DNA from: Blasia pusilla
Taxonomy: Eukaryota
NCBI GenBank assembly: GCA_050084515.1
Contig: CM114271.1
Span: forward strand, 11,718,001 to 11,782,000
DNA: 64,000 bases
Direction of reading: 5' to 3'
Notes under the pieces: model-generated
The model's database searches: none
The model's input: the letters and a program-made list of their open reading frames with translations, nothing else
Told to the model about the DNA's origin: nothing
Program-made: the position numbers and the translations under genes
Shown here: positions 5,801 through 29,336 of the stretch, piece after piece
Position numbering within the stretch: the stretch's first letter is position 1
Layout: the number at the start of each line of letters is the position of its first letter

Positions 5801-7467
5801 TTTGAGGGATGGAATGTCACAAAAGAGTAGCTTCCATACACCAAATTACAAAATCAATCACTATTACATGGGGTTATAATCCAAATAGATTAAAAAAATG
5901 CAAATCAAATATAGTAGGGTTTTTTTAATCTCATCTTGAAAAAGCAAGAGAGATGTCATCCATGAAAATAAAGATAGTGCACCTTAGATAGTCGACTGCA
6001 AAAAGAAAAGACTACTCTACTGAATCACCTTTCTCATACGTATCTCTGGCCAAAGCATGCTTGAGCCAAGTGCATCACCAAATGTTTCTTGTGCAGGATC
6101 GTCATCAAATTTGGCATCCACAAAGCATGTTCTGGTTCGAACACCTCGTTTAGATTAACCCTCACCGTGCCTAAGGGGATGTCTTTGGCATGGAGCTTGT
6201 CTCTTCCACCAAGACCTGATATAACTCCTGACCCAAGCACCATCCTATTCAACTTTGGCTTGGTGAGTAATACGTAATCACCAATCCGCAGCTACAAAAA
6301 TACATAGGCATTTGGTTAGTGTCAATTCAAATTCTTCCCACATGCATATGCACCATCAACCTGGAAAAAAAACTGCTATGATATACTTGTTTGAAAGACC
6401 ATCCCCATTTCGGAAGATGATGCAAAAAGTTCACAAGTCCTAGACGACCATTTGACTCTCCACAACAAGAAATATTAGTGGCGTCATATGAACCTCGAAT
6501 AGAAGAGGCCATTGTAGGCAAGAGAAATTACCTTACTTCTTTTCTTGGACGACCCGGATCTGATTTCACTTTCCTGCTCATTCAAAGCAGGAAAGTGAAA
6601 TCAGATTGTAGCCTAGACTTTAGTCTTTTGGCTGGTCATGATTTTGTTTGGCTGTCCATGCTCAGGTTTTCTGCACATTATGCACACCAAGGTCCATTGA
6701 ACGATGTACGAAGAAATGACCATTATTTTGTGGATAGGTTGAAAACTACACCAAGGAAAAATTCATTATGCCAAGGACGACATACTTACGAGTGATCCGA
6801 GTATCACCATATGCACTTTCTGTGGAACTTCTCCTTTTGTTGCTCCGTTCTGGCACTTCTACAAACAATCCAAGTATTGAGAAATGAATTGTAAAACCAG
6901 ATTCTTCACTTCAACAAGTAATTATATTATAAGACCCTGCATCTAGTGAAGCTAAACTCACTCCTTACCACCAGATTGTGTAGTTGCCATTGCTTCTTTT
7001 TGTGTGGAGATCTTCCTCTTCCTTAATTTTCCGGCTTAAGACGTTGGTATAGGTTCAACAATGACTGTAAGTTACTCAAAACAAAGAAAGTTAGTTCTGA
7101 AATACTAATGTTGGAAAGAACAAGTAGTTATAACCATTGAAAATTGGAGGCGAAAGAATGAGAATGGGCTATCGGATGTGAGTCCATGTCATCAATGACA
7201 TATCACACAAAGTAGTCCATGTCACTGATGACATTTCATTATTCCACGTCATCTAAGTGACATGTCAGTCATGGCCTCATGACTACATCCTCGAGTCATA
7301 TACCAACGTCCACCTAAGTCGACCATCCTAGTTAGCCTTGTCGCCAAACAAATATGACTTGGGTTTTGTGTCTAAAGAAGTCGTAAGTCATTGTTAGTCG
7401 TAGTATGTAAAGTATGACTCATATGAGTCATATAACCTAGTCATAAAACGAGGGATTTCTTCTAGTG
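2871..7467. mobile_element. Decayed CACTA (En/Spm) DNA transposon, right-hand part
   Basis: Terminus ...gatttcttctagtg at 7467 (CACTAGAAGAAATC on minus). Dense subterminal tagtcata/tatgact motifs at 7180-7445 and 5265-5420. Minus-strand TnpA-like C-terminal peptide at ~6035-6290. The other end is outside the window. Confidence 0.8.
6034..6292 (-). pseudogene. TnpA/Tnp1-En/Spm-like (Transposase_23/DUF8039-like) C-terminal domain remnant
   Basis: LRIGDYVLLTKPKLNRMVLGSGVISGLGGRDKLHAKDIPLGTVRVNLNEVFEPEHALWMPN, then after a frameshift DDDPAQETFGDALGSSMLWP; resembles the CACTA ORF2 C-terminal pattern. Confidence 0.65.
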
Positions 7468-9900
7468 AGACACGACAACATGAATGAAATTTTCCCGCTT
7501 CGAGGCCGAGACGTTTTCCCTTCACTCTAGTTCGAATGTGGCGCTCTTCTTGGCTGCCTAGATCTTGGACCAGCAAAGAATTATGATTGCTGCATCTTGG
7601 GAGATGAAGGTATTCGCCCAAGTCTTCTTCTTAATTTGAGATCCCTTCACGAGCATCTCATCAACCAGGTCCTCACTAAGGAATCCATTGTATTACGACA
7701 CGTGTGTTGTAAGCACCTTTTTTATTATGTTGCATTCTTGGATCCAATGGTGGGTCATGTTCCCCTCGAATAAAATCCTACACATGTGAACACAAAGTTA
7801 GACTAATGATCCCTTGCAACCCATCGATTTCCGTCTGGTTGCACCACAGAATATGAAAGAAAATATCATGTACAGAGTCAGTGCAACCCGTCGGACTCTG
7901 ATGGATTGCACCACTCTCTGCAAATTGCAAGGATGCACAACCCGTCGGACTCCAACGGGTTGCGAAAATCTCTCCGAAATGGAATCTCTTGGAGGCCCAA
8001 TGTAGTTTCTACAACCCGTTGGACTCCGACAGGTTGCACCACTGTTCGCAGATAGCAACAATGTGCAACCCGTTGGGGTCCGATGAGTAGCACATGGATG
8101 TCCATCGGCATGAAGTGATGCAAGCCTGTTGGAGTCCGACGGGTTGCTGGGAGGCCCCAAAAGCGGAAATTTTACGCTACTATTGAACCAATTTACCTAA
8201 AGAAAATATGGTTGCAACCCGTCGAACTCCGATGGGTTGCTTTTATGCCTCTAATGACTAATTAACTAGACCATTGTGCAACCTGTCGGACTTTGACGGG
8301 TTGCAAAACACATGTTTCATCCAAAACCTTACTAGAAATCTCGGTCATTTCGCAACCCGTCTGAGTCCGACGGGTTGCAGTAGCCAGGTTTCATCCAGAA
8401 ACTTGGCTACAAATTACTCATTTTATTACCCTTTGGACTCCGACGGGTTGCAGGACGATCTAGCAAAATATCATGGAAGACGTAAATTCAACCCGTCAGA
8501 CTCCGACGGGTTGCTGGACTGTATCCCAAAATGCCTATGGAAGGTCAAAAAGGCTTTGGTCTATCGACTCCTATGATTCTTGCCAATCTATATTCTGAAT
8601 ATTTCAGCAACCTGTCGGACTCCGACGGGTTGAAGCAAGCAAAAAATATTCACAGAGAAAGATCAACTTACGTATTCATCGAAGCATTGCCATCTCCACC
8701 GTTGCCATGTGATGCGAAAAGGGATGGAGGACGACTGCCCTTATGCAGAAATGCGTCTCCAATGAATTCAAGTGCTCCGCTACAAATTGTGAGCATGCCA
8801 TGAACCTGTGGTTTCTATCCCAGATAGAGAAGTAGAGGTCTCGCATCCAACTGAATTGGGTTCCTTCAATAGCTCTTTTGAACTCCTAGTCTCTGATCCT
8901 CCAGAATGTGTCCAAGGCCTCCAAGTCTTCTTCCGTCACCAAAGCCTGCGTTCCATGTTCATCATAAGGTTGAACATAGAACTAAGGGAAGCTATCGATG
9001 TAAGATGTTGTGGCAATCGACAGCTTTAGCTTTGCGATGTCCTTGTCCGACTGAATTTTGTGGACGTACTCCATGGTCTGCAGTCAACAAAGTGGAATTC
9101 TTGGGGACTTGTGACCATCCACCACTGCCATCTGCTTTACAACTTGCAAAAATATCGAGAATTTCAATAAGATGCTCTTTAATATATGTCAATTAAGAAA
9201 GTAATTAAGAATGCTCTTTCAGATATGTCGATGTCTGCTTACCCTCTCAAAAATTGGGTCAATGTCGAGGCTGGCCGGCTGCTGTGGGACAACAGGTGGC
9301 AAGTCCACTTGAAATTCATTGATACAAAAGAGGTCAATTTCTTCCACCAGGTCTTAAGGAGGACGAAGACTCTTCTCCTGCTTCTTCAAAGATGTCCACC
9401 ATCTCCACACTTACAATCCTCATCACCTCCTTGTCGGTCTCCTAAACTTCTGCGGTTTCTTCAGTAGATTTTAAGTTCATTGTGTCCCTAGACCTCATCG
9501 TAGAGACATCCTCCATCTCAATGTTGTCCATAGGATGAACAGGTCTTTCTTCCATGGCGATAGCTTTCCCCTCCACGCTTTTGCCAATTTTTCCCTCTTG
9601 ATAGATGCGTCGAGACGCTTCTTCTCTCTCTTCTTGTCCGCGACTCTTTTCTTCAAGGCCTTTGATGTCTCAGCCTATACATTTTGCCTTGAAAACTCCT
9701 CCACATCAAGCTTTGCCTCAAGCTCCTGCATGCGCATTTATGCTTCCCTCTCCCGGTCCTCTATCTCTTGTTGCCTAATTTTTTCCGCCAAGCGAGGGCC
9801 AAGAGATGGCGACGAAGGAGTCTTGATGGACTTGGGAGTGACGCTCCCAACCTTTGTTGCTTGTGTTTTCCTCATCATTATGAATGTCAAAGATCTACAC
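7468..9900 (-). pseudogene. Spliced gene for a coiled-coil + ParB/Srx-like domain protein, inactivated by C-to-T stops; 3' part cut by CACTA
   Basis: Manual minus-strand translation of ~9142-8672 in one frame: VVKQMAVVDGHKSPRIPLC*LQTMEYVHKIQSDKDIAKLKLSIATTSYIDSFP*FYVQPYDEHG...WMRDLYFSIWDRNHRFMACSQFVAEH...AVVLHP...VEMAML. WD(G>R)NHR matches the ParB/Srx DGxHR motif. Donor gtaag at ~8671, acceptor tgtgtag at ~7778. The next exon 7777-7468 reads ILFEGNMTHHWIQECNIIKKVL... apart from TAA/TAG/TGA stops. Upstream exon(s) ~9243-9880 are charged and coiled-coil-like. Confidence 0.65.
7814..8635. repeat. Palindrome array A: ~12-13 copies of TGCAACCCGTCGGANTCCGACGGGTTGCA with unique ~25-65 bp spacers
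   Basis: Copies start near 7814, 7882, 7937, 8011, 8064, 8121, 8213, 8277, 8352, 8426, 8488, (8555, degenerate), 8608. The array lies within the predicted intron of the ParB-like gene. Confidence 0.92.
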
Positions 9901-10155
9901 TTGTGCACTCCTGAAACTATACTGAAACACGATCGACTCTATCAACTCTCAAAGCGTCGTCACTTGGAGCGTCGTTACCTTCTAGCGAAGGGGCTTTGAT
10001 TAACGTCGTGTTCAAAAAACGTCGGGACCTCAACTGTTGGGAGGACTCGTCGGAGGACAAAGAGCTCCAACTGAAATCGCGGAATGAAAAAAAGAAATGC
10101 GCAAAATTTGTGCCTTATACTATTTTCGAGCCGTTGAGCTTACCATCGGGTCTTG

Positions 10156-11130
10156 GCAACCGTTGGACCGACGACGACGTCGGCCATTCCGGTGCTTTGC
10201 ATGGTTCCCCGTGCAACCCGTTGGAGTCCGACGGGTTGGACGGTTCCCTCGTAGTAGGAATACGATGCAAGGTCCCCGTGCAATCCTTCAAAGTCGGATG
10301 GCTTGCACGGTTCCCTCATCGTAGGAAGACAACGCGAGTTCCCCGTGGAACCCGTTGGACTCCGACGGGATGCAAGGAAGAAGCGACCATCATGCAACGA
10401 AACGAGACGGGTTGTACGAGCAGGGGGTATGGACCAAGAACCCCATCTACGGGTTGTCCATCTACGTATGGCCATTATTTTCGTGCAACCTGTAGAACTC
10501 GGACGGGTTGCAAGGACAAAAGTGGCCAACGGGTTGCAAGTTGTTAGATTACAAAAAGTTGTTGTCATGGCCGGGACTTCCTTCCTTCTTGCAAGAGGGT
10601 CAAGATCAGACAGTGCGGTCCCTAGGGTCGTCGAGGACGTAACGGAACCCACCTCGGCTGTCCATGTGCAACCCGTCAAACTTCGACAGATTGCACTAAG
10701 GAAATGTTCTTCACTTTCTCACCCACCATTACGAATGCTGCCACTAGTTTGAACCCCATCAGATTGCAACCTGACGAAACCCAATGGGTTGCAACCATAC
10801 GGATTCCAAAATTTTGCAACATGTCGGACTCAAATTTTTGGAGTCACATGATTTGCAAGTAGACAGATTCCAAAAATTTGCAACCAGACGGATTCCAAGG
10901 GTTTTCAACTTGTTGGACTCCAACGGGTTGCAACTTAGCGGAGTCTGACAATTTGCAAGTAGACAGATTCCAAAAATTTGCAACCAGATGGATTCCGAGG
11001 ATTTACAACCTATCAAACTCCGACGGGTTGCAACTTGTCGGAGTCCAATGATTTGCAACCATAAGGATTCCAAAAATTTGCAACTTGTCGAACTTTGACG
11101 GGTTGCAACTAGTCGGAATCTCAAAGGTTG
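10156..11130. repeat. Palindrome array B (intergenic, between the divergent genes)
   Basis: Spaced copies near 10212, 10279, 10347, 10393, 10484, 10667, then a dense head-to-tail run at 10750-11130 mixed with a gattccaaaaattt variant. Confidence 0.9.
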
Positions 11131-11311
11131 AACTAATCTCGTGAATGGCAAAACTTAGGCAATCTCGACAGTCAAAAAACTTCAATATGTTCAATCCCAA
11201 GGGTAATTTATTTATAATGGAATTTCCTTGGTCCAGACAGCGTCTAAAAATCTCACCTACCAAACAACAGCTTGTAAGACGATTTATGTCAAAAGTTTAA
11301 CGGTCACTATT

Positions 11312-11622
11312 TATTGAAGATTGAGTTACAGTCAAGCTCATGAGACATCTGAATTGTTACATTTGATACTCATACAAAGTAGGGAAGCTTAATCTTGGTT
11401 AGTCACTTAAGCGCAATTATCTTAACTAGGGTTAGTTAATCACAGTTAGTTTGCTCAAGACTATGGTTAAGGTTAGGATTAGGGTTACTTGTAGATACCC
11501 CATATAATTGTGAAGGGGACCAACCTCCACTTATTCTCTCATTGCAAATTTCGTTCTCCATGGTGGTGTGTGAGTGTGAGAGCCGTTTCCCACTAGTTAT
11601 GCTTCTTTAGTAGTTTTCCACA
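11312..11622 (+). repeat. 5' LTR of copia copy 2
   Basis: tattgaagattg...ttttccaca, directly followed by the PBS. Confidence 0.95.
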
Positions 11623-14600
11623 TGGTATCAGAGCGATAGGAGAATATCACTTGAAATTCTTGGTGTTTGAGGAGAGAAGAGAGGCAAGAGAAGGCAGAAC
11701 ATCAGTTTGGGAGAAGGAAATTTTGTTTTGAGCTCAGTGGGTGCAGATTTCAGGTGGAGCTTTGACGGTGATAAAACTTTGGAGGAGTTTTTAGGGCTTT
11801 CCCGGTCGATTTAGCCATCTGGATCCGTAGCGGCTAGAAAAATGTCAAAGGCTTTTTCAAGCCATCTTGTAGAGCTTATCGAGAGTTTTCCAGCTAGCCC
11901 AAAATTGCTCGATTGTGACATTCTGAGCTCCTGCAGTAGCAATTTTAGTGTAGGAAAGTGCAATTAGTGAATAAAAGTTGTGCAGTTTGCTTTCTACAAG
12001 CCAATTTTGACTAGTTCTTTCATACATTTGATCAATTTCGGCAAATTTCAGGTCAATTTCTGTGTAGGAGTGGTCTATGCTTCAATTGGAGTAGTAGAGA
12101 GCCTGAAATTATATTTTTTGTCAGTGAAATCGTTCGTCCTGGAGTTTTCCTCAACAGCAATCACAGGCGAGAAGTTAGATAAGAAGAATTATAATGTCTG
12201 GAAGTTTCGCATGAAATAATTTCTCATGGATCAAGAACTATGGGAGCTTGTCATAGGTGATGAGGCCAAGCATGAAGGTGACTCAACAGACTTGAATGTT
12301 CGCGCCTAGAACAAACGCGCAAGGTAAGTAATCCACTACATTTCAATAACAATCAGTTCGCCAATGATAGGTCACATTCAAGATGTTGATATTCCGAAGG
12401 AGGCGTGGGATGCATTGGAAAATCTATTCCACACATCTACAAAGTCCAGAAACCTTCAATTGAAACATGAATTGAACGAAGTGAGGAAAGGATCGTAGAG
12501 CATCAATGATTATATTTTGAGTATTAGACATATTGTTGATGAGTTGAATAGCATTGGAGTGACAATAGAAGATGATGATATGATTTTGTTTACTCTTCAA
12601 GGCCTTCCAAAGGATTACAAGTCCTTTGAGACCTCTATCTCTGTCAGAGAGAAGTATCCAACCTTTCAAGAGTTAGTCCCACTGTTAATCAGTGAAGAGA
12701 TGCGCCTACTAGGCAGCGGTAGCTCGTCTAGTCTGCAAGAGAGTGCGTTTTTGCAGGTTATGGATCAAATAGAGGCAAGGGTCGTGGCAGAAGCTTCTGT
12801 GATCTTGGTGGATATCAAGCATATGGAGGAAGAGACACTCAATATAACGTCACTCAATCAACTAGGAACCAGTACCAAACACAATCACAAGGTGGTGGTG
12901 GAAACCGTTGGGGTCGAAGTCAACAACAGAGGGTCCCTGGATCTTGCAATTACTGTGGGATAAAGGGTCACTATGAAAATTTTTGCTTCAAGAAGAAGGC
13001 AGATATGAGAATAGGAGCCTTACAACAATAAAACTATGTGGAGCAACAACACCAAGACGGGTACCAAGAAAAATAACATTTACAAACAGAGCATCTCTTG
13101 GTCATGACTCATCATATGGAGCAATGGTCAAGAAAGACTTGACAGCAGATTGGTACATTGACTCTGGTGCATCAAATCACATGACCTCACAAGCTAAATG
13201 GTTCAGTAGTTTGGAGCCGGTGAAAGATCCTGCAATTGTGCTCACAGAAGATGACACTCAACATCATATCACGCATACCGGTAAAGTTCCAATAGCATGA
13301 GATGGTCTTTGTGCTCTTGGAAATATTCTCTATATTCCTACCATTGTAAGAAACCTGATCTCTGTAGGACACATAGTAGAACACGCTTATCAAGTGGAGT
13401 TTAACGCAAATGGTTGTTTTATTGAAATAATGGATGACCAAACTACGATAGCCAAAGGAGCTAGATCTGGCAGAATATTCAAATTATATGTTTCTATGCC
13501 AGAGATTCAAACAGCAATGTATGGTCAAACCGGCCAACAAGTCATAGATCTAAATGTGTGACATAAGATAATTGGACATATAAATCTTTAAAGATTACAG
13601 AGTCTTTCATCATCTAATATAGTAATAGGACTTCCTAAATTAGCGAGTCCTGCTACGTTAGAGGTATGTCTTGCTTGCCAATTTGGAAAACAAGCTAGAT
13701 TTCCTTTTCCAAAGCAAGGTAGAAGAGCATCCAGGATATTGGAGTTGATCCATAGTAAATAGCATCGCAATCTAGCCTTAGTGATTGCGAGTACTTTATT
13801 TCAATTTGTTCATGACTTCCCTAGGTATATATGGGTATAATTTTTGAAAGCCAAGTTAGAGGTATTCTCAGTGTTCCAAACATTCAGAGTCCTAGTAGAG
13901 AAGCAGACTCGACAACACATTATGAAATTGTGTTGTGATGGAGGAGGAGAGTATCTTTCAACACAGTTTGATAACTATTTACGTTAGAATGGCATCCAAC
14001 GTCAAGTTACTTGCCGTTATACTCCACAAAAAAATGGAGGGGATGAGAGGAAGGATCGATGTATTGTTGAAACAACACGAGCTATGTTGAATGAGAAGAA
14101 GATGCCTAAGGTGTATTGGACAGAGGCTTTAGCATGTGCACTCTTCTTAATCAACCAAACTCTAATAGTAGGAGTTCATGATAAAACTCCATTCGAAGTC
14201 TTCACCGGAAGTAAACATGATTTCTCCTTCTTCAAAGTATTTGACTGTATTTGTTATGCTTATGTTCCTTCTAAGCGATGTCAGAAAGTAGACCCCAAGT
14301 TTGAAAGATGTATCTTCATTAGCTATGCTGATGGAACTAAGGGGTATAAGTGCTACATTCCATCCTCTAGGCAGCTTATTATTAGTCGCGATATTATCTT
14401 TGATGAGCTAAAGTCATGGTATGCTCCATCTGAGCCTATTCCACCTCTAAACTTTTCTATCGAGAGGGAGAATATGATTGTAAACCAACAGACATTGTCT
14501 TCAACTTCCCCAAGTACTAGTATAGGACTAGGAGAGGTCCTAGATTCATCGGTTAAATCTATGAGTCCATGGAGGTGAAGAGTACGTATTCAATTTGTTG

Positions 14601-15628
14601 ACACAAGTTAGAGCTTGAATCAAGTGTTAGAGGCATCTACCTGTGAACAATAACTTTGTAGATCAAATCGAGTTACACATCCAATTCATAGATTCATAAA
14701 TGAAGGTTTCCTTGTGACACATCATGCATATATGATGACCACCTTTCAAGAACAGGAGCCAAGTTATTTTGAAGAAGGTGCAAGTAAAGTCAAATGGATT
14801 AAAGTTATGGAGGAAGAGCTTGCTACATTAAGATATCAATAAACATGGGAGCTGGTTGATATACCTTCCGGTAAGGAAGCTATTGGTTGCAAATGGGTTT
14901 CCAAAATCTAGCGCAATCCAGATGTTACAATTAATATATACAAAACAAGATTGGTGGCTAAGGGCTATGCATAACAATATGACATCGATTATGAGGAAAC
15001 ATTTAGCCCTATTGCAAAGATGGCGACTACGAGAATAGTGGTTATAATTGCAGTAAGTAAGAATTGGAGATTATATCACATGGACGTCAAGAATGCCTTC
15101 TTGAATGGAGATCTACACGAGGAGGTATATATGACTCAACCACCTAGATATAACCATCCCAAGTTTCCATTTCGCGTATGCATGATGAAGAAAGCTCTAT
15201 ATGGGCTCAAACAAGATCCAAGAGCTTGATATGGCAAATATACGTTGGGCTTCAAAGAAGCAACCTACAGTTGCTTTATCTTCAACAGAGGTTGAGTACA
15301 GAGGAGCAACCAATGCAGCATGTGAGGCGGTGTGACTTCATCGATTACTTGTTGAGATTGGTGTTAGTAACTTAGGACCTAGTGTAATATATGCAAAAAA
15401 AATATTAGTAGCATCAAGCTTGCTAATAACCTTGTGTTTCATGCTCATACAAAGCATGTTGAGATCCACTATCATTTTATTAGAGAGAAAGTGCTTGCAG
15501 GAGAAATTGATCTTACGTATATAGATACAGATCAGCAAATTGGTGACATCTTAGCATTGTCGAGTTAAGTTTGAGATGTTTAGAAATGATTTAGGCGTTA
15601 GAGATATGGATATGAGCTTGAGGGGGAG

Positions 15629-15940
15629 TATTGAAGATTGAGTTACAGTCAAGCTCATGAGACACCTGAACTGCTACATTTGATACTCACATAAAGTAGG
15701 GAAGCTTAATCTTGGTTAGTCAGTTCAACGGGATTATCTTAACTAGGGTTAGTTAATCACATTTAGTCTAACTCAAGACTATGGTTAAGGTTAGGGTTAG
15801 GGTTGCTTGTACATACCCTATATAATTGAGAAAGGGACCAGCCTCCACTTATTCTCTTATTGCAAATTTCGTTCTCCATGGTGGAGTGTGAGTGTGAGAG
15901 CCGTTTACCACCAGTTATGCTTCTTTAGCAGTTTTCCACA
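15629..15940 (+). repeat. 3' LTR of copia copy 2
   Basis: Preceded by PPT gagggggag; followed by TSD ctatt. Confidence 0.95.
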
Positions 15941-15999
15941 CTATTCACTATAAATTTAAAATTCTCATTATCATTCTTACTTTTATTCTTATTCACCTA

Positions 16000-18900
16000 A
16001 TGGTGGAATCATCATTGTTGTCATCTGCAAATGGATAATTATGTGAAACTCACATGTGGCAGTCATCTAGCGGCCCTTCCTCAATCAGAAATAATTCGAC
16101 CGCAAGCTCTTGATTCTTGTGTATAAGTGGATGAAAATTTCCTCTCACTCCGATTTCTTCTCCAAATTGGAACAATTTGGTTTCCACGGATGTAAGGATG
16201 CAAACGAAGGACGTTGTAGATGAGACAGTCTAGCCAGGGATTGGAGACTCCAAAGTATGGAATCTCCTACCTTACACAAATGGACAATACATAGTGTATG
16301 GCTTGCCTTTGAAGCCTTATGTTTCTCAAGTCGAGAGTCTACAATTTCCTAGTGCACCGAGCTCCACGTTTGCCACTCCTACCTTTGGAGATCCAACATC
16401 GAGTCCAACTTCACCCGTTCGTGATAATGTTGTACTTCTTGAAGAGATTCCGAATGTCGTCGACCTCACGGGATCTGTTAGACATCAAACGGACCCTGCC
16501 TCTGCCTACTAGTGCATAAACTTGCGGTTGCAAGTTTTGAGCAATAGTTTGTTGTCATCTCTGCCCTTAAAAATGTTCAACCACATTCTTGTTGACGAGC
16601 TTCCGCCCACATATGATGGAATTTGCCTTTTTGAGTTGCCTCTACTTGCTGGTCTTGCTCAGAAGAAAGATGGAGGATGCTTGAAGGGTATGGACATAAA
16701 GTCTGACTGTCCTCGATGGTACAGGCTACAACGGACAAGTGCTTCAATTCCATATGGTCCTTCAATGGTTTCTCGTCGCCAATGCGTTGGAGCCCTCGAG
16801 TGTAGAACTCATGGCTGCCCGTTTCTAAAGCGCAATGGGGAATCAATGCATCGCAATTCCCCCCAAAGAATGCAAAAACTACATATGAGGTAGGTACGAC
16901 TATACCGCCAAGAGGCAATCGATGTCCTTATTGTGAGACCTCCCCTTTCTGCATTGGAGCGTGTCCAACATACATTTATTTCATTATGCAAGACTACAAT
17001 TCTACATCCGAGTACATCAGGCTAACAGTTCATGTTGGGTCCCAAACTCATCTTGTTACCGGTACAATTCAGAGACACATCAAGGAGGATGTGGCAAAGA
17101 AAGTGGCTGAGGTATATAGAAATTCTTCGGGATCAAAGCCTGGAGTGATCAAATTGACAAAAGCATCACAAATTTGTGAAGAATTGCTTGGAATCCCTGG
17201 CTTGGACGAGATCACAACTGCTAAGGAGAAATAATTATGGGAAAATCTAGCATTTCTCACTAATCATGAATGCTTTAGGAACTTGTTGCATCAAATACGA
17301 GTACATGATGGAAAGACGATCGAAATGGATGCCATCGTGAGGATCTAGGCTAACTCCAAAATTCCATTTATTCAGATATGGTAGTTCATGAGCCAGGAAG
17401 GCGAAGGATCTAGACCTTATGCCTTCAAAATATCTACGACATGATAGTCTAGTGGCCTCGATCTTATTGATAGAATGAGGGAAGGAGAAGATCTTTATGG
17501 CATTTGGATAAGCTTTGATATTTGCTACAGAGTGTTGAATGGATGGTTGACCATGGATGCGCATGTTTATGACCATGTGGAGAAGGGACTCAAAACCATT
17601 TTTGTGTATGAGGTAAAAGCTGAAGACATTAGAAGTCGGTTTTTTACGGCTTGCAAGGTGCATTTGCCTGCAATCCGTCGCATTTTGATAGGTTGCATCA
17701 ATCTGCAAGTCGTCGGATCTCGTTGGCTTGCAAGTTCCAAGTGTGCAAGTTTACTCACTCTACAACCCCTCGGATTCCGACAGGTTGCATCAGTCTACAA
17801 TCCGTCGGATCCCGACGGATTGCAAGTTCCAAGTGTGCTAGTTTACTCAGTTTGCAACCCATCAGATTCCCATAGGTTGCAAGTTTTTCCCTATCGACAC
17901 TTCTTGCAACCTGTCAGAATTTGATGGGTTCAAAGTCTGAAATTTGGTGAAAAAAATTCTCCCAACCCGTAGGACTATGACGACTTGCACAAAGAAATTA
18001 TAAGGAAAACTTTCCCCCTACTGGCAACCGGTCGGATTTGGTCCGGTTCCAAAAAGAGGTTCCTTTGTGATGTAAGTCGTTGGAATCCGACAGATTGCAC
18101 ATGGATTCTACAAGGCGGACTAGTCTCCTACTTGCAACTCGTCCGATTCCGACGGGTTGTAGTAGGAGGTTCCTGGGTGTCGCAACCCGTCGGAAAGCGA
18201 CGGGTTGCAGATAGAAATTCCTGGGATGCCTCCGACTTGCAACCCATCGGGTTTTGACATGTTGCAATTTTCTTTGCTTAGAGATCTTTTTCCATTCCCT
18301 TATCACATTTTTGTCTCAAGGATTGAACCTTCACGAAAATGCCCTCTGCCCCAACACAAGTGGAGCCAAGAGTGTTCATTCCACTTGGAGGTCAATCCAA
18401 GCATGCCAAAAAATTTCACTCATGGAGGCATGCCAACAAGACCAAGCAAGGGCAATGCTGCAATCCAAACATCCCATATCTTCCTCACAAAAGGCGTAAC
18501 CAAAGAAAAGGGTCCTTTGATTTACGAGCTCTATGTTAGGGCCGCCGTGAGATCTGGTGATGAGATTTTGTATGTGGAAGCCTTCAATCGGTCCATAGTC
18601 GAAACTCCTCTCGAGCAAGATGTCCACATTGGTGGAGACATTCATGGGCGTGTTTCAAGACGTCCCATATAGATGGTGGTAGACGAGTGTGAGCGAGACT
18701 CTTGGAGACCAGGTAAGTATCTTGACTTCATGCAAGTTAAGCACCAACATCGAGGAACAAACCTGGTGATTGATTTGGATGATGAAATTAACCTGGCAAG
18801 GTATTCAGAGACACCGGATTGCTCATAAATTCGAGTAGAAGTAACTTATCCAAAATCACTGAATATTTTATTTCAAAATCCCTCTGTTGCTGGAACTTCC

Positions 18901-19682
18901 TAACATACGGTACTTTCCTGAATAAGAACTGTACAAGGACAAGACGACCATTTCCTGGCTTTTGGGGGCTGAAAAACTTTGATCATTTTACCAGGACCAG
19001 GGATCAATTGAAGTACTTCTTCTACGGAAATGAATCATGCCCTTCCTGAAAGTCTTATCCGGCTCCCATTAGAGCTCCAGGGAATACCCTCATGATTTGG
19101 CCCATTGCTGCAGGTACCAATTGAACTCATGAGGAAGTAGAAAATCTTACAAGTGCCGGATTCATACTCGTAGACGGAGGGAGTTTGGAACAGGTTAGCA
19201 TTACAGAGACTTTCTCATTTTGGATCCAACCTCAGATTGACGTCAATATTTATCCGGAGAAGGTGGATGATCTCAATCCACTATTTCTATTCGAGTCAAG
19301 AAATGGGGTGAAGAGAAATAGAATGTGTAGGCCAACAACATAGAGAGCAAAGCAAATCGCATTAGCTCGGGAGGCAAACATGGAAATCATCGCTACAAAA
19401 GACGTTCATAGTGGCAATGGAATAGGAAGGATGTATTGGGTGAGGAACAACACTATGAATTCAAGTGTCACATAGGTGTTTATGGTACACATATGTTGCT
19501 TTCCCACATGTTCCTGTGATGACTTTGTCCAAAGAGAGAAAACTGGGAAAAGGTATTTCCCTTACAAGCATATGTACTATGTGTTGCTTGTAGTTTTAAG
19601 AGAGTCAGAGGTAGGAGTAGGAATCCACCAACCAATTTTGTCCCTTAAAGAAGTGCGTAGTATCCTAAACAAACCACTTTGA
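16000..19682 (+). pseudogene. MULE-type transposase remnant: Cys/His (WRKY/GCM1-like) DNA-binding region, partial DDE core, C-terminal SWIM finger
   Basis: SRRQCVGALECRTHGCPFL...CPYCETSPFCIGACP...RLTVHVGSQTH (16770-17050). WISFDICYRVLNGWLTMDAHVYD, a likely first catalytic Asp strand (~17500). PNTSGAKSVHSTW (TNxxES-like, ~18350). PTCSCDDFVQREKTGKRYFPYKHMYYVL, a SWIM CxC...CxH with one Cys mutated (19476-19682). Many stops and frameshifts. Confidence 0.7.
17668..18268. repeat. Palindrome array C (~12 copies) inside a predicted intron of the transposase
   Basis: Coding sequence ends at ...ACK|gtgcat (~17657) and resumes at ~18320; between them are repeated gcaacccgtcggaNtccgacgggttgc variants. 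Confidence 0.88.
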
Positions 19683-19788: not shown

Positions 19789-20152
19789 ATGAGCTTGAAC
19801 TCTAATCAGCTAAGGAAAAATGATGAATCTTTTTCAGACCTTGGATGGAAAAAGTAATTTGTTCCAAATTTGTGATTCCAATGATTTTTTAGTTTTTTTT
19901 AAAATTTTGTGCAAGTTGCAACCCATAGGATTTAGACGGGTTTCCAGAATGTGGAAGAGGAAAAACCAATTTATGGGAGTGTTTAAGCACAGAGAACAAA
20001 ATTGAAAAAATATTCACAAAAAAATCTTCCTCTCTTCAATCCAACGGAAACTATTTTCAAATCACAAGAAACTCTCTTCCAAAAAAAATATCCCTTTGGG
20101 TTGAAGGTAGTTTTCTCTCTCCTCTCTTCCTCTCTTCCTCTTACCGCGCCTC

Positions 20153-23719: not shown

Positions 23720-24811
23720 GCAGAGTGAGCGGCCTCGGCGGAGCGCCGAACGAGACGGAACAAACTTCAATAAAGAAGTCGAACGCGACGGAACAAGGAG
23801 GCGCGCGGGGAACAAGGAGCGCGAGCGGGAAGGGGCAGCAGGAGCGAATGTGACACTTTTCGAATGTGGGGCCGGAGGGGTCTCCACACCTCCACCCCTC
23901 CGTAGGGCCCCTACCGGCTGCACCTGCCGCGAGTCCCCGACTCCCGAGTGATGCGGCAATGGGGAGTCATGGGACTCATGAGAGCCGCAGCGGTGTAGCG
24001 GCTAGCCCATCCCTAAAAATATTTAGGGTTGTAAAGTGGGCGGTTCAGATTAAAAGATCACATGGCCCCGGATTTCCGACAGCTAGAAAGGATGTCAGTA
24101 GATTTCCGCCAAATGTAACGAGGAGACGATTTAAATCTGACGTGACACGGGGCCCAAGGTCCGTTGCCGTTCACGCCGTGGGGTATCCGGACCAAAGCCG
24201 ACCGAAGCAGCCAGTTCAGGAGGATTTCCGAAACGTGTCCCCAACCCACCGAAAACCCAGCCGGGAACTTTTAGCTGTAGTCGGAAATTTCTAAAAATGA
24301 CCGGCCGGGATTACTCGTAACCCCGGATCTCCCCGTTCCTTGGGACGGAAGGAGCTACGGAAGGCAGCGTAGGTCGTGGCAGTGCGGAAGGCACGGAGGC
24401 TGCACCGGAAAGTGTGTCAGAGGATGTCGTGAGGCGCAGAGAGTCCAAGCCGCTAGGTCCCACTAAGGGCCGGGTCGCATGGGCAACTTCTTGGGGTCGC
24501 TTGCGACCCCAAGAAGCCACCCGCCGACTGGAACTGCTCGCCGGCGGCGGCTTTCCAGCCGGTTCCTTCCAACCGGCTGGGAACGGAAAGTCCGTTTCGA
24601 TTCGGAAACAATTTTCCTCCCACCCCCCCCTTTTCCTTTCCTTTCGGTTCTTATAAATTCAATCCTTCTTTTTTTTATTTTGCTCCTTGTCTGAGTTGTC
24701 ATTTTCATAGATTTCATGTTTCATGCATATTTTAGTCACATAGTAAGACATTCATTTATTTTTTTATTATAAGATTTTTTATTTTCTTTTTCTTTTTCAA
24801 CTTTTTTAATC

Positions 24812-26106
24812 ATGGATATTTTAGATGAAGAGAGAATGAACATGTGCTTCTTGACTATTTATTTGGTTCTTATAATTCAAATTTTTTCTACTCGTCTTTT
24901 TTTCTTTCAAGTTAGGAGTAGGAGGTCCTTCTTTCATTATCGTGCTCTCTTCTATTTCCAATTCATGATGAATGCTAGGTCTAGTATTACATCACGTCGC
25001 ATGTTCTCTCCTTGGTATATTTTGCCACGATCTATGACATTTACATGTCTTTTCATTGACGAAACTATAATAAGAAGAGATCATCCGGAGCGATTTAGAG
25101 ATTTCTTTCGTGTTACGGTAGATACATTTGACTTCATTTGTGATATGTTACGGAGTCGACTAACTACTAATCCTCCCCATTCCCTACAAGTCTTACCAAA
25201 CAGGTTGTTGAGTGTTGAGAGACAAGTCGCTATTACTCTACGACGTCTTGCCACAAGGGATCAAATGAAGGGGATTGGAGAGTTTTTCGGTATCGGAAAA
25301 TCTACAACTGTGCAAGTTGTCTTTAGAGTCATTAATGCACTTGTGGAGGAGGCACGTGGGGCAGTGGCTTGGCCGAAAGGACAGCATATGGAGAGGGTAA
25401 AATCAGATTTCGAAGCACAACATGGATTTTTGAATTGTTGCGGTGCAATTGATGTCACTCACTTCCTCATGGAACTACCAGCGGGTGCAAATTCCACAGT
25501 TTGGTATAGTCATAAAAGCAAATCTTATGCTTGTGCGATGCAAGCTATCGTTGATTCAAGACTGAAATTCCTAGATGTGTTCATTGGATATCCTGCTTCT
25601 ATTCATGATACTCGAATTCTTCGAAACTCCCAATTCTACAAAAATGTAACTTCCAACCAAAGGGTCCTAGATGGACATTCACTTGCATTAAGAAATGGTG
25701 AGAGGATTCGAGAGTATATTATTGGTGATGCAAGATATCCACTCTTGTCATGGCTCATAGTTCCTTATCCATGAGCACCTATCGGACAAAAGGACACTTG
25801 GAACTTTTATCATTCTTCCATGAGGATGTGTGTGGAGAAAGCTTTCGGCCGATTAAAAGGGACATGGCGCATACTCAATCGAGTCATTTACAAGCACTAC
25901 CGAAGATGATATTTGCTACATGTGCTCTTCATAACATCATGATAGATAGAGAAGATCCTCTAGTATATGATCTCATGGATCCCTCCTCCTCGACAAGAAT
26001 GCATGTAGCACAAGGTCATAGCAATCCTCCAAACAATGAAACAACATTTGAAGGAAGGAGAAATCGTGATGCTCTTTTCGAGCATATCATGGCAAGAGTT
26101 GAATAG
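24812..26106 (+). pseudogene. Harbinger DDE transposase (DDE_Tnp_4/HARBI1-like) with one premature stop and one frameshift
   Basis: CCGAIDVTH, GYPASIHDTRIL, YIIGDARYPLLSWL; TGA at 25772-25774 read through in frame to HSSMRMCVEKAFGRLKGTWRIL; frameshift into MIFATCALHN. Confidence 0.92.
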
Positions 26107-26275: not shown

Positions 26276-27596
26276 TCAAGATCTCCCTTGAAATCCCCTA
26301 CCAAAGGCATGACAAAAGGCTGTAGAAATCATTGTAAGAGCATCCACATTCTGTTGTAGGACTTTCAACTCTAATTTTCGCTGTTCAATATCCATTCTTT
26401 GACCATCATGTATAACATCTATCATGGCATCAGTAGATTCCTTCCTGGCATCTCCCATGGAGCTCTTACGCCGTCGTTTTCCTCTAATCCCATCCTTGAG
26501 GCTCTTCCTTTTCGAAGTTTCCTTGCCGAAATCTACATTGCCACATAACACCACTAAAGTCATTAACTACATTTCCACATAAGACCAAAAAAGTCACAAA
26601 AATCATTAAAGACAATTATAAGAACCTTCAGTATGAGCACACGATGAAGGCGCACGCGGAGTAGTTGGGATCTCTTCTGCATCCACTGGGACTTGAAATG
26701 ATTCCACATCTATACAAACAATAAATAAATTAGTAGTAGCATATGTGCATAATAAGTGAAATTAACAAAGAAAAGAACTTCCTTTGTTTCATATTCATGT
26801 ACCTGGAGAAGACGATGGAGGAGAAGGTTCGTTGGTTGGGATCTCAAATGACTCCACCTCTATATAAACAACCAATACGTTAGTAGTAGCCTTGTATTGA
26901 TACTAAGAAACAAATGAACAAGGTGACATCCTTCTTCTTTTGGTAAGATTGATATACCTGGTGGCACGAGTGAAGCTACGGACTCATGGGTGGAGGATTG
27001 AAGTTAGCATTAAGATCAAGTAGAAGTGAAGTATCAAAGGTGGACACTCCCATGCTCTCCGGGTCCACGTCTTGTCTTTTGGGGAGCTATTCTACTAGAC
27101 CCTTGTAATAGGCTTCATCAAAGTTTGAAGGTAAAACTAGTGCTTTCTGGTCCTTTCTCAGCATGCGAGTGTCAAAGTAAGACAATTCGCCGCTTTTGGC
27201 CTTTCGCTCCCAATCATGAACCTGTAATGAAAACTTACATGAGTGTCAATTGTAAAATAAAGACACTTCATGTTTTGCATCACATCATAAAAATTGGATA
27301 CCACCAACTTCACTTACTTGTTTGAATTCTTTTATGAGAGCACTCCATTTCTTTTTGCACGCCTGGCCATCACGAATAGGTTGCTTTATCCCATTCTTCA
27401 AACAAAAGTCAGCCACTTTTTTCCACTTTTGTTTTAAGGTGGCCATAGTAGATTGAGTAGTATAATTCAGTTCTAATCGCTCCATTTCATCTCGTTTTGC
27501 TGCAATCAGAATTTGAATCTCGGAAGTTGTCCATGGAATCAGCTTAGCATTCTGCGTTGGTACTTGAGAATCGAGTATGACACAATCCTCGTCCAT
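26276..27596 (-). CDS. Harbinger Myb/SANT (trihelix-like) DNA-binding protein, spliced; internal exons not resolved
   Basis: Exon 1 WTTSEIQILIAAKR...KWKKVADFC...RDGQACKKKWSALIKEFK with gtaag donor at ~27317; last exon coiled coil ...EQRKLELKVLQQNVDAL (26276-26545). Confidence 0.85.
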
Positions 27597-29336
27597 ATGA
27601 CTTCCTTCCTACAACGGCAAGAAAAAGAGTAGTGAAACTTTTATTTTTGAAAAAATGGATTGAAGAAATAATATGACTTTCCAAGAAAAAGAGTAGTGAA
27701 AATTTGATTGTTACTCTTATGCAAAGATTTCAGTCATTGGATGGAATCAAGGAATGGTTGAAAAAGTTTATTGAGGATGGTGGGTGGAAGTTCCTGAACA
27801 TGGACGCAAAGTTTATTGAGGATGGTGGGTGGAAGTTCCTGAAAGCAAAGGCCGCGGGAAAGCCATGCGTGTGTCTTCGTTATACTCTCCTACTTGTCCT
27901 ACCGCGCTGTCGGGATGAGTCAGATTCTGAATGCGCGACTCTAGCCCGTGCAAAACGAGCGGAAGACGTCTTCAGACAGCGAGAGAAGCTCTCGGAGAAG
28001 CAGCTTGTGCTCCTGTGTTCTTGCCAGATCTGGTCTTGAACCTCACGCTATCGCTCCATGAGGCTATATTCCAGGCAGGCTGTCTACTTGGAACGAGGTG
28101 GAGATCAATGTGTACAGTAGAGAATTTCTGGGCTCGTGGATTTTGGTCAGAAGAGAGAGAGAGAGCGGTCGAAACCCCTTTTCTCGACGAGGACGAACTT
28201 CTGAACAGGCCCGAGGGAGAGTGATGCCCATGATTTGTGTTTGGTATAGCAGCAGAAGAGAGTTCCTATAGGACCGGCTCTATGCATGTGAATTACATGG
28301 CATTCGACCGGTACCTTCACATCCAGATTATGGATATTGCCTCCAATTTCTCACCGTCGATTAGGATCTCGTGGTCCGGTGGTCTTCTTACTGCTGTGTT
28401 TTCGTTTTCCTTGGCTGCGGCCGTTGCCCAAGCTCCAGTCCAGCAGTGCTACCAAGGGAAAATACCATGGGAGGAACCGGAATGGATTCATTCACCTGGA
28501 CGGATGCCCATTGAAATCTCCCCGTCGTCTTGCACTCAAGCCCAAGTGACCATGGGTCAAGTAAGTCATCACTTTGAAAATGTAAAATCCATCCTCGCAG
28601 TCAAATCCTGTGCATGAAGTAACTGCCCCCACGAAATGTGCAAACTCGTGGCGGCGCTAGCAGCAGCAGGAGCTCGTGGACACAATTGAGCCTGTAAATC
28701 ATCTTTCTCTTACGTCGGTCACAGTCGATTCGAAACGAAAGTTCGGATCGATTTGGTCAGTGACTTTACTTCTCGAGCTACAGTACTTGAAGAATCAAGG
28801 AGATCTTAAGATTCTCTAATAGTGTTCCATCTTGCGTCGAGATCTGCAGGATCTTATGAAACATTCTAGATTCCACAGAAATTCCAAAGAGCGTGCAGTT
28901 TGAGCGTTTAGAGTTTAAGGTGTCCAAACACCCTTGACGCCAGACGCAATCACATCATCACAGACATGGGCTGCGCTGCGCTGCACTGGGTTGGGGCTGG
29001 GCGAGTGGTTGCGCGGCTCTGATCCGGAAGTGTATGGACGACGTACAGGCGCCTGCGAGAGGAACAGAAATGGGTACGAAGGAGGAATACGAGACAGAGT
29101 TCGAGGAGTCTCGAGGCTTAGCTGTCCTGACATAAACGATCATGGAATCTGGATTTCTCGCTATCCTACATCTGAGACTTCGCGGCTTGGCTCGTAGATC
29201 AGGATTATTTATTAGATTTGGAGCAATATAAAAAGGGAAGTCGATCATGGATGAACACCACGTCAGGGTAGGACGAGGCGACGGCATTCAAGAGTACATG
29301 GCAGGTGACCTCATTGCACAAGTCCATGATTACAAC

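Follow-up and report, generated by a model that had tools for sequence, protein, structure and literature searches.

Palindrome arrays in and around a ParB-like pseudogene of a liverwort-type mobile element: possible relic docking sites for an element-encoded protein

ParB-like genes with adjoining inverted-repeat arrays are the subject of a very recent, experiment-free proposal for how giant algal transposons recognize and modify themselves. The genes in question, PAG3, are accessory genes of giant Plavaka (EnSpm/CACTA) transposons in red algae; in the proposal of Petroll et al. (2025, bioRxiv 10.1101/2025.02.11.637652), the PAG3 protein would bind the very element that encodes it and modify that element. 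In Ectocarpus, the element Sola1-1_Ec32 carries a ParB-like and DNA-methyltransferase accessory gene on the strand opposite its transposase (PMC12477816). Experimental work is available for Arabidopsis VANDAL21, where VANC21 was shown to be a transposon-encoded sequence-specific protein; its motifs accumulate as dynamic tandem repeats, which lie in the introns of VANC21 and VANB21 and upstream of VANA21 (PMC5735166). In bacteria, sopC of the F plasmid consists of 12 repeats with an inverted-repeat site for a dimer of the ParB-family protein SopB, and it lies beside the SopB gene (PMC3177203).

Here we describe a locus in which three clusters of one palindrome lie in and around a ParB-like pseudogene. 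It falls within a stretch of 64,000 nucleotides, the whole of which we call the window. By analogy with the algal elements, the locus suggests that the same module of ParB-like gene and array is present in the liverwort lineage. We found no report of bryophyte ParB-like transposon genes in the literature covered, which excludes most subscription journals. The locus offers a defined 29-bp palindrome together with a protein family that has intact members in sequenced liverworts, and it raises the question of whether eukaryotic transposons reuse recognition of the bacterial ParB-parS type. Since the copy in the window is dead, its value is that of a pointer to the family and not of a functional locus.

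One palindrome, three clusters and a conserved intron

The repeat unit is a palindrome of 29 nt, TGCAACCCGTCGGA-N-TCCGACGGGTTGCA, with arms of 14 nt each and a free centre base. An earlier note on this DNA had described a CRISPR-like array of such palindromes, and the array itself is confirmed by repeat search and shuffles: array A (7815-8634, no strand assigned, as for all palindrome features below) holds 12 copies, which the repeat search groups into a single family (28 nt per copy, 7815-8633). Identity to the reference copy ranges from 64 to 100%, and the start-to-start steps are 67, 54, 74, 54, 56, 93, 64, 74, 73, 63, and 119 nt. The spacers measure 25-90 nt, a wider range than the 25-65 nt first given. 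With up to 3 mismatches allowed, the 27-nt consensus gives 18 strand-matches in the window, where 100 shuffles put the expectation at 0.00; a 12-nt half-site with at most 1 mismatch is found 30 times (0.08 expected).

The array was thought to be confined to the intron, but half of the half-site matches (15/30) lie elsewhere: seven at 10213-11031, seven at 17777-18250, and one at 59268. They define two more clusters. Cluster B (10200-11132), with at least 10 full palindromes, is situated upstream of the ParB-like gene, 0.3-1.3 kb from its putative start; array A is inside that gene. The part of cluster B at 10765-11132 is a tandem run almost without spacers, with periods of ~25 and ~50 nt. Tandem Repeats Finder reported related arrays at 10198-10355 and 10851-10996 and missed array A. 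Cluster C (17669-18266) has 10 or more palindromes that belong to this family, with the centre mostly GGATTCC, and is located between ORF-bearing pieces of a plus-strand gene. It may be intronic, because a donor-like site (GAG/GTAAAA, 17612/13) and an acceptor-like site (18281) flank it. A lone degenerate copy lies at 19917-19944 and another lone copy, distant from the clusters, at 59267-59294. All three clusters are restricted to non-coding DNA, either within or next to the ParB-like gene and the divergent gene that neighbours it. Matches between clusters are of palindrome length only (26-30 nt), and what the three clusters share is the palindrome and no larger unit. Spacing differs by context (~25 nt without a spacer, 67 nt, and 54-119 nt). 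The 34 full copies in the window, aligned over 28 positions each, differ from a single consensus by 156 changes in all, a mean identity of 83.6%. The exact palindrome pattern was found at 0 loci in IMG/VR. The centre GANTC is the site of CcrM/HinfI-type methylases, members of Pfam family PF01555; this detail is weak, because odd palindromes always have a free centre and the flanking GA/TC is a ~1-in-16 coincidence. Two inverted CCGAC cores also occur in the arms; CCGAC is the plant DRE/CRT core, and by this resemblance a host factor might be a candidate binder.

Array A fills most of an 894-nt intron of the ParB-like gene (7778-8671, minus strand), leaving 37 nt unoccupied at each end. The intron is supported by homology with P0018, L003, L001, and L002, and its borders agree with those first predicted, with the donor GTAAGT at 8671-8666 and the acceptor AG at 7779-7778. 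Residues 132-296 of the protein P0018 align to 9164-8685 and residues 294-387 to 7797-7525, exon 2 of the relative L003 aligns to 7746-7561 (E 1.2e-6), and GTAAGT stands at the same codon in 4/4 aligned genes, the conserved junction being AMHxLN|GTAAGT. A metagenome scan with an 8-sequence alignment of the ParB-like family yielded relatives on three short contigs, and all three keep the intron. In L002, the same intron holds two copies of a different palindrome, which is the sole palindrome with arms of at least 8 bp in that contig and differs from the repeats upstream of the L002 gene. The L003 intron has one degenerate half of the L002-type palindrome. Two DNA sequencing runs matched the locus (0.07 share of words), and no RNA runs were among the matches listed. 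Run X2 contributes 751 diverged DNA contigs over 7300-11200, array A included; these data are contigs, so that their depth does not give a copy number. Joints inside array A in these contigs fit a variable number of units and may partly reflect alignment ambiguity among the repeats, and no intron-less copy was found among the joints listed.

The spacers had been described as mutually dissimilar, and most pairs are; 2/55 pairs are nevertheless similar at p<=0.0033 and 6/55 at p<=0.05, against 2.75 expected (for example, 7911-7935 with 8039-8063, and 8306-8350 with 8380-8423). Part of array A arose by duplication, with plain tandem duplicates that include the spacers: D3 is a two-unit repeat of 128 nt and D4 a repeat of 74 nt. 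The possibility raised against the original description, that the spacers are diverged copies of a tandem unit, is therefore borne out for some spacers but not for all. In recently duplicated units, the palindrome has diverged as much as the spacer. The 34 copies have 343 Watson–Crick pairs, compared with 345.9 +/- 5.0 in shuffles, and no pairing covariation was found among them (8 compensatory changes vs 9.3 +/- 2.5 by chance), which lends no support to the suggested selection for RNA hairpins. Of the 156 changes, 94 are C>T or G>A, and 56 of those 94 fall at CpG sites, of which a unit has four. The arrays of the window copy now decay neutrally, without sign of present selection.

The ParB-like gene family and its surroundings

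The gene that hosts array A is, on sequence grounds, a pseudogene; its family is multi-copy and comes mainly from liverworts. We collected 67 homologues; 11 of the 20 looked up are Riccia sorocarpa paralogues, and a further homologue comes from Calypogeia fissa. In the window, all parts of the gene lie on the minus strand. The putative N-terminal coding region (9353-9878, with an ATG at 9878) is low-complexity, Lys/Glu-rich, and contains stops, and is covered by diverged contigs of run X2. The exon for the ParB/Srx-like domain (8672-9188), assigned by homology and predicted fold, has three in-frame stops within the domain and a 1-nt deletion immediately before the donor. Exon 2 (7525-7777), which also has in-frame stops, encodes the start of a helical region that follows the ParB-like domain.

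The label 'ParB-like' holds at the level of the fold, as judged from predicted models. The AF2 model of the homologue P0013 has a pLDDT of 94.5, and in a VIA structure comparison its first 14 rows are all ParB, Noc, KorB, PadC, or sulfiredoxin (Z 8.2-6.0), the best at Z 8.2 with an rmsd of 2.9 over 98 aligned residues. A longer model gave a best row at Z 8.6, rmsd 2.5, also over 98 residues. Support for a ParB/Srx-like N-terminal fold is moderate, because VIA rates a Z of ~8 as middling; Foldseek E-values were weak (best 0.042). Sequence profiles were silent: Pfam gave no family for the window gene at E<=1 and the ParB family in 0/19 homologues, a search of PDB sequences with profile A1 gave 0 matches at E<=10, and the ParB-like profile gave 27 pattern matches in IMG/VR, of which 0 were confirmed. 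A DGNHR motif is nearly invariant in the family and reads DRNHR in the window copy. It may be the counterpart of the ParB GERR or Srx GCHR phosphate-binding motif (GxxR after the central strand). The P0009 model contains a confident helical domain at residues 274-390, where ParB has its HTH, and the only alignments that reach it are 7bnk_A (150 residues, rmsd 5.8) and 8qa8_F (137 residues, rmsd 5.7).

At the C-terminus, three of seven long or fragmentary homologues (P0070, P0068, and P0071, which form one 90% cluster) match PF01555 with E-values of 5e-5 to 9e-6 and 23.7-26.2 bits, below the Pfam cut-off of 26.7. A pattern search found no D/S-P-P-Y catalytic motif, and Pfam found no oxygenase domain in the homologues scanned. 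We also looked in the window for exons of a methylase or another C-terminal part: an HMM built from 14 long homologues matched the ParB-like exon only, and tblastn matched that exon and, with P0018, exon 2. A preprint on Marchantia 4mC methylases, including DN4MT1, a possible relative of the methylase part, does not mention ParB in the portion consulted.

The surrounding locus is TE-rich, liverwort-type, and eukaryotic, with copia, gypsy, Harbinger, and Helitron domains found by Pfam. That scan took in 237 stop-to-stop ORFs out of the window's 336 of at least 60 aa, namely 130 (all of at least 60 aa starting before 24000) and 107 (of at least 75 aa starting from 24000). A copia-type LTR retrotransposon (11312-15940, plus strand) is a later insertion; its LTRs (11312-11622 and 15629-15940) are 91.7% alike, and by eye CTATT stands on either side (11307-11311 and 15941-15945). 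Beyond it lies a degenerate Cys-rich gene on the plus strand (16513-17612), possibly encoding a transposase or DNA-binding protein. Taken over 16513-19679, this second gene has no Pfam family even at E<=10, no homologue among proteins of 250-2000 aa or 78-249 aa, and no paralogue within the window. For its Cys-rich N-terminus, ESM-Atlas gives a lead to GCM (12% of members) and FLYWCH (14%) zinc fingers, with a score of 0.95. Near 19500-19580, a DDE stretch resembling that of MULEs and a SWIM-like CxC...H motif were picked out by eye, but family and homologue searches did not support them. At the cluster edges, we found neither terminal inverted repeats nor a target duplication, and inverted matches of at least 11 bp are the palindrome itself only.

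Candidate roles of the palindromes

We think it somewhat more probable than the opposite that the palindrome arrays are relic docking sites for the element's own DNA-binding accessory protein, a reading drawn from analogy and architecture. On this view, a liverwort-type genome would harbour a multi-copy mobile element that carries all three clusters of the 29-bp palindrome. The accessory gene of this element would encode a ParB/Srx-like N-terminal domain and then a helical domain and, in at least one cluster of full-length homologues, the protein may end in a beta-class N6/N4 DNA-methylase-like domain (a weak match). The palindromes would be the cognate sites of a dimeric element-encoded DNA-binding protein, most likely the ParB-like accessory protein. 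Tandem duplication would have multiplied these sites in non-coding DNA of the element: within the accessory gene's own intron, in the intergenic region upstream, and in non-coding sequence of the neighbour gene on the opposite strand. With many sites, the protein could recognize 'self' DNA with high avidity and, once bound, could serve to mark the element or to regulate it, with DNA modification, resistance to silencing, and control of copy number as examples. Binding to the palindromes, the identity of the binder, and the consequences of binding are what we infer here.

This docking role is supported because the clusters share the palindrome only and lie in non-coding DNA by a ParB-like gene, because the conserved intron of L002 carries a different palindrome, and because published precedents exist (PAG3, Sola1, and VANC21). 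It is weakened because the gene is a pseudogene whose arrays decay neutrally, because the palindromes of recent duplicates have diverged as much as their spacers, and because ParB sequence-profile matches are absent and the methylase match lies below the Pfam cut-off. The earlier note had spoken of regularly spaced binding sites; analogy and architecture favour binding sites, but the spacing is irregular. A bolder version, which we regard as rather unlikely, is that a land-plant-lineage element possessed a working bacterial ParB-centromere logic, in which a dimer would load on the 29-bp palindromes, spread or methylate, and so mark 'self'. The protein would then be a ParB/Srx-type nucleotide switch, fused in full-length copies to a beta-class N6/N4 methylase-like domain, and spreading or methylation from the palindromes would counter silencing or control copy number. 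Subfamilies would then differ in protein and palindrome together, a co-evolution hinted at by the different palindrome that L002 has in the same intron.

Of the other explanations, a functionless minisatellite is unlikely. In that case slippage or unequal exchange would have expanded a palindromic unit prone to form hairpins in the non-coding DNA of a mobile element, where it would persist only because it does no harm. The plain tandem duplicates D3 and D4, with their spacers, speak for a minisatellite, the contig joints fit it, and so do the pseudogene status of the window copy, the lack of covariation, and decay mostly by C>T and G>A. Such a process would, however, copy unit and spacer together, and the three clusters have unrelated spacers and share the palindrome only. 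Nor does it sit well with a relative that has a different palindrome in the same intron, or with the recurrence of analogous arrays by ParB-like genes in distant lineages. We judge it somewhat less probable again that the palindromes are sites for a transposase, like subterminal or foldback repeats, instead of the ParB-like protein. The spacer-less run at 10765-11132 does resemble the repeat-built ends of foldback-type elements, the zinc-finger lead for the neighbour gene would suit a transposase, and the subterminal tandem repeats of Muta1 raise transposase binding and excision (PMC5499845). Against this, neither terminal inverted repeats nor a target duplication turned up at the cluster edges, two of the clusters (A and C) lie internally between exons, and no transposase family matches the neighbour gene.

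The intron array could instead act as RNA, its excised units pairing into dsRNA and giving small RNAs that regulate or silence the element. The intron folds far better than shuffles (-375.8 vs -260.2 +/- 8.4 kcal/mol, z -13.8), with units that pair mutually over ~27 bp in the predicted fold. Strong folding is automatic for any palindrome array, though, and compensatory changes are at chance level. In Rfam, 7000-19000 returned three sub-threshold rows only, two of them miRNA families far below their gathering scores (best rows, 27.6 bits vs 211 and 25.9 vs 100), and the clusters outside introns would require another explanation; we hold an RNA role to be very unlikely. A separate non-autonomous foldback or MITE-like element inserted in the intron would account for array A as a compact block between unique sequence, with other blocks holding the same unit. 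By eye, however, positions 7815 and 8634 have no target-site duplication or distinct terminal sequence, the block shows internal duplications and no defined element structure, and the same intron of relatives also holds palindromes; such an insertion is highly improbable. The resemblance to a CRISPR-like adaptive array, in which partly palindromic repeats alternate with mostly different other sequence, is superficial, and for practical purposes this reading is refuted. The array lies in a spliceosomal GT-AG intron of a eukaryotic locus, Pfam scans of the 237 ORFs contain no cas-like domains, the repeats vary and the spacers are irregular and in part mutually homologous, and 7778-8671 had no match among 50,697 phage records.

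Comparison with known systems

A bacterial likeness to the arrays, here read as docking sites, is sopC, an inverted-repeat array beside the gene for a ParB-family protein. In sopC the repeat has a constant 43 bp and its inverted repeat spans 16 bp, in contrast to the 29-bp palindrome and irregular spacing here, and our locus has no ParA partner or plasmid context. Muta1 resembles the locus in that short arrayed repeats raise binding of an element protein and copy number matters (PMC5499845), where binding in our case is proposed; its repeats are 12-bp direct repeats within terminal inverted repeats, whereas our locus yielded no termini and has two clusters in internal positions.

Sola1-1_Ec32 shares with our family the order of a ParB-like domain followed by an N4C/N6A-type DNA methylase, for which we have a weak match in one homologue cluster. 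It also shares the protein length (~1,100-1,200 aa there; 1207 and 1191 aa in the Riccia homologues P0070 and P0018) and the placement of the gene on the strand opposite a second element gene. The sections of that paper drawn on here mention no repeat arrays (PMC12477816), and the methylase match in our family is below the Pfam cut-off and absent from the window copy.

The likeness to PAG3 is closer on the side of the arrays. In both cases the N-terminal domain of the accessory protein is ParB-like by profile or fold methods only, and the best HHpred match of PAG3, 7BNR, is also among the top fold matches here. Tandem inverted-repeat arrays adjoin the gene in both, and most copies are degenerate. 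PAG3 is fused to a putative 2OG oxygenase, compared with the weak N6/N4 methylase match of one cluster in our family; a Plavaka transposase is identified there only, and an array in the gene's own intron is found here. The lineages also differ, red algal in one case and liverwort-type in the other.

VANDAL21 differs in that the VANC motif is a 9-bp non-palindromic YAGTATTAY and VANC is not ParB-like; the resemblance is architectural only. Within that architecture, the palindromes occupy the same three places as the sites of this experimentally proven system: the gene's own intron (array A), the non-coding DNA of a neighbour gene (cluster C, possibly intronic), and the upstream region (cluster B).

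Palindromes in and beyond the intron

Array A, the set of palindrome copies in the 894-nt intron of the minus-strand ParB-like gene, comprises 12 copies of a single palindrome at 7815–8634 (repeat search), spanning 820 nt and leaving 37 nt free on either side. Alignment of all window copies defines a 29-nt unit, TGCAACCCGTCGGA-N-TCCGACGGGTTGCA, whose arms of 14 nt each flank one free centre base. The 27-nt core, at up to three mismatches, has 18 strand-matches in the window versus 0.00 in 100 shuffles, and the 12-nt half-site, at up to one mismatch, has 30 versus 0.08. Chance is therefore excluded as the origin of the array, which is real and non-random. It is not a CRISPR-like array, as had also been claimed, nor is it regularly spaced: successive copies start 67, 54, 74, 54, 56, 93, 64, 74, 73, 63, and 119 nt apart, and the 11 spacers, counted with 29-nt units, range from 25 to 90 nt.

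The proposed confinement to the intron fails as well, since 50% of the half-site matches fall outside it. Cluster B (10200–11132), upstream of the gene, has a 67-nt period at 10198–10355 and 25/50-nt periods at 10851–10996 (Tandem Repeats Finder), the latter stretch consisting of palindromes set back to back, nearly without spacers. Cluster C (17669–18266) has its own internal duplication of ~92 nt, and two further copies stand alone at 19917 and 59267. BLAST between clusters returned matches of palindrome length only (26–30 nt) and found no shared spacers. Among the 34 full-length copies (12 in array A, 10 in B, 10 in C, and the 2 lone ones), the centre base is C in 16, T in 8, G in 5, and A in 5, and the surrounding GA-N-TC is found in all clusters, with position 14 kept in 30 copies and position 16 in 31. 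The variant GGATTCC occupies the centre of most cluster C copies, and most copies of array A have GGACTCC.

The ParB-like gene and its relatives

As judged from sequence, the predicted intron is real and is supported by three lines of homology, and its borders had been placed correctly. Read on the minus strand, the intron opens with the consensus donor GTAAGT (first base 8671) and closes with a pyrimidine-rich acceptor whose AG ends at 7778. The homologous protein P0018 aligns unbroken along the protein and in two pieces along the DNA (residues 132–296 to 9164–8685 and 294–387 to 7797–7525). All three metagenome contigs that encode relatives (L001, L002, and L003) are split in the same codon context, ...AMHxLN(K/G) followed directly by GTAAGT, which is invariant across the four-way DNA alignment, and exon 2 of L003 matches 7746–7561 in the correct phase (E 1.2e-6). 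By eye, the intron is ~105 nt in L003 and ~227 nt in L002.

A search of 1.8 billion library representatives with the domain encoded by exon 8672–9188 yielded 67 homologues at E ≤ 0.001, of which 16 reach E ≤ 1e-10; identities are 23–36%. Among the 20 homologues whose records were consulted, the liverwort Riccia sorocarpa accounts for 11, all annotated as hypothetical proteins, and the other 9 name no organism; one further homologue comes from another liverwort, Calypogeia fissa. The window copy is broken: the domain contains three in-frame stops, DRNHR stands in place of the conserved motif DGNHR, and a 1-nt deletion precedes the donor.

Pfam gave no match to the window gene at E ≤ 1 and no ParB family among 19 homologues, and a profile search against PDB sequences found no match. 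At the level of the fold, the ParB-like label is supported by structural models. From 57 aligned sequences, AlphaFold2 gave a confident model of the homologue P0013 (pLDDT 94.5), whose top Foldseek matches, though weak, are ParB and sulfiredoxin (6sdk_A, E 0.042, probability 0.98). VIA-align places it against the N-domains of ParB, Noc, and KorB with Z of 8.2–7.3 over 90–104 residues (rmsd 2.6–3.4), followed by PadC, sulfiredoxin, and other ParB/Srx proteins. A 570-residue model of the homologue P0009 repeats this likeness (Z 8.6) and contains a confident helical domain (residues 274–390) in the place corresponding to that of the HTH in ParB; structural alignments into this domain are poor (rmsd 5.7–5.8).

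Full-length homologues reach 900–1200 aa and are conserved well past exon 2. One 90% cluster has a C-terminal match to PF01555 (N6/N4 DNA methylase) at 23.7–26.2 bits, slightly below the cut-off of 26.7, and such a methylase-like part was not detected anywhere in the window. A pattern search of this region in the Riccia homologues P0070 and P0018 did not find the catalytic motif D/S/N/T-P-P-Y/F/W/H; visual inspection shows LDLPTG or LDMPSG in its place, with a motif-I-like IDFAGGWG farther on in P0070. The domain is perhaps divergent or inactive. GANTC, the centre of the palindrome, is the site of CcrM/HinfI-type methylases, which belong to PF01555, to which the P0070 C-terminus shows its weak match; this may be a coincidence.

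The gene family is repeated DNA. Contigs from X2, a DNA sequencing run from another organism, cover 30 of 30 bins of 7300–11200, array included; among 751 contigs, 18 are at least 99% and 416 less than 90% alike. Several link one palindrome to a distant one, for example 7963 to 8607 across 18 other letters (depth 25.9), and such joints are compatible with copies that have fewer units, with the caveat that repeats align to one another ambiguously. A 48-nt unit occurs twice in the homologous intron of L002, the two copies lying 95 nt apart and being 85% alike; at its core is a different palindrome, ATCTCGGC-N7-GCCGAGAT, the only one with arms of at least 8 bp in that contig. The short L003 intron retains a degenerate half of it, and L001 stops just inside the intron. 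These three short contigs, a thin sample, point to intronic palindromes as a family trait whose sequence varies by lineage. Upstream arrays may likewise be a trait of variable sequence: L002 carries three non-palindromic tandem 54-nt repeats (1–166; 85–93% alike) that precede the start codon by ~130 nt.

Neighbouring elements

The window resembles the TE-rich DNA of land plants, with copia pieces (gag, RT, and integrase) and gypsy pieces (RNase H and integrase with PHD fingers). The copia element at 11312–15940, with LTRs at 11312–11622 and 15629–15940 (91.7% alike) and, by eye, CTATT on both flanks as an apparent 5-bp target duplication, is a later insertion that parts cluster B from C and interrupts the intergenic region of two divergent genes; with it subtracted, cluster B would be an intergenic region of ~1.7 kb. 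Its segment 11767–13697 is 88% identical to 1–1936, part of a related copia-type element at 1–2871. The second of the divergent genes is a degenerate, multi-exon plus-strand gene (16513–19679) with a Cys-rich N-terminus (CPRWY...C..ALECRTHGCPF, CPYCETSPFCIGACP). Searches found no Pfam family and no homologues for it, and the sole lead is an ESM-Atlas match to GCM/FLYWCH zinc fingers. A SWIM-like CSC...KH motif was read by eye near 19500–19580. This gene may be the element's transposase.

Farther along lie a Harbinger/PIF-type DDE_Tnp_4 transposase ORF (24773–25771, plus strand, E 1.2e-13) with a Myb/SANT-like partner on the opposite strand (27288–27608, minus, E 2.3e-07), and two oppositely oriented gypsy-type pol regions (43218–45354, minus; 46983–49732, plus), each with a PHD finger ORF at its integrase end (PF00628, E ~3e-07). 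Helitron-type PIF1-like helicase pieces with a 2B domain occupy 56549–57514 (plus, E 8.4e-19), and the lone palindrome at 59267 lies 1.7 kb past them. Two minus-strand ORFs with SPFH/Band 7 domain pieces (38746–39369) are probably an ordinary host gene amid repeats.

Growth, decay and possible role of the palindromes

The spacers had been described as mutually dissimilar. At p ≤ 0.05, similarity is found in six of the 55 spacer pairs, versus 2.75 expected, two of them at the permutation floor (p ≤ 0.0033), and the array contains a two-unit 128-nt duplication (7884–7963 versus 8012–8091, 74% alike) and a 74-nt duplication (8257–8330 versus 8331–8404, 72% alike), the unit alignment recovering the same pairs as the repeat search. 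Ordinary duplication in tandem, with later divergence, thus produced some of the array, and some spacers are diverged tandem copies, an outcome that the earlier note itself had named as a refutation and that holds here in part; the remainder have no detectable relatives. Of the 952 positions in the 34 copies, 156 deviate from the consensus, including 51 C>T and 43 G>A changes and 56 CpG-site transitions, a pattern typical of plant repeats that are methylated and unconstrained. The main rival reading, in which the arrays are minisatellites that are no more than tolerated, would sit well with this growth and decay; set beside the unrelated spacers and the palindrome-only likeness between clusters, we consider it rather unlikely.

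The earlier note had suggested selection for RNA hairpins. Arm pairing does not exceed that of right-arm shuffles among copies (343 Watson-Crick pairs versus 345.9 ± 5.0, P = 0.75), and pairing-preserving double changes are not in excess (8 versus 9.3 ± 2.5), so the 34 copies give no sign of a hairpin, RNA or DNA, under selection. Folding of the intron RNA is far stronger than in shuffled sequences (z −13.8), and the units pair mutually, as would happen with any palindrome array. We lean, with modest confidence, towards reading the palindromes as multiplied docking sites of a DNA-binding protein that the element itself encodes, the ParB-like accessory protein being the likeliest; the copy here is dead, and the palindromes survive in it as a relic in decay. 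Such a protein would dock on the palindromes of its own element; this binding and its consequence are suggested by the architecture and by published analogues, while the anatomy, homology, fold, and decay of the locus are direct results. Binding by the transposase instead has a candidate in the neighbouring Cys-rich gene and a precedent in Muta1, where subterminal tandem repeats raise transposase binding and excision (PMC5499845); array A lies within the ParB-like gene itself, and we regard this alternative as improbable.

Docking on the palindromes by the ParB-like protein would have several parallels. The Bostrychia genome paper describes giant Plavaka transposons with an accessory gene, PAG3, whose N-terminal ParB-like domain was detected by HHpred only (top match 7BNR) and which "tandem arrays of inverted repeats" adjoin across families; its authors suggest that the PAG3 protein binds and modifies its own transposon (bioRxiv 10.1101/2025.02.11.637652). 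The Ectocarpus Sola1 element is reported to encode, on the strand opposite to the transposase, a 1104-aa accessory protein with ParB-like and N4C/N6A DNA methylase domains (PMC12477816). In Arabidopsis VANDAL21, VANC21 was shown experimentally to bind a short motif that builds dynamic tandem repeats in the VANC21 and VANB21 introns and upstream of VANA21 (PMC5735166), and F-plasmid sopC consists of 12 43-bp repeats, in each of which SopB, a ParB-family protein, binds an inverted repeat of 16 bp (PMC3177203). Our search of the literature on ParB with liverwort, Marchantia, bryophyte, and eukaryote transposons found no report from bryophytes. The window locus combines a gene of the PAG3/Ectocarpus type with a VANC-type layout of sites.
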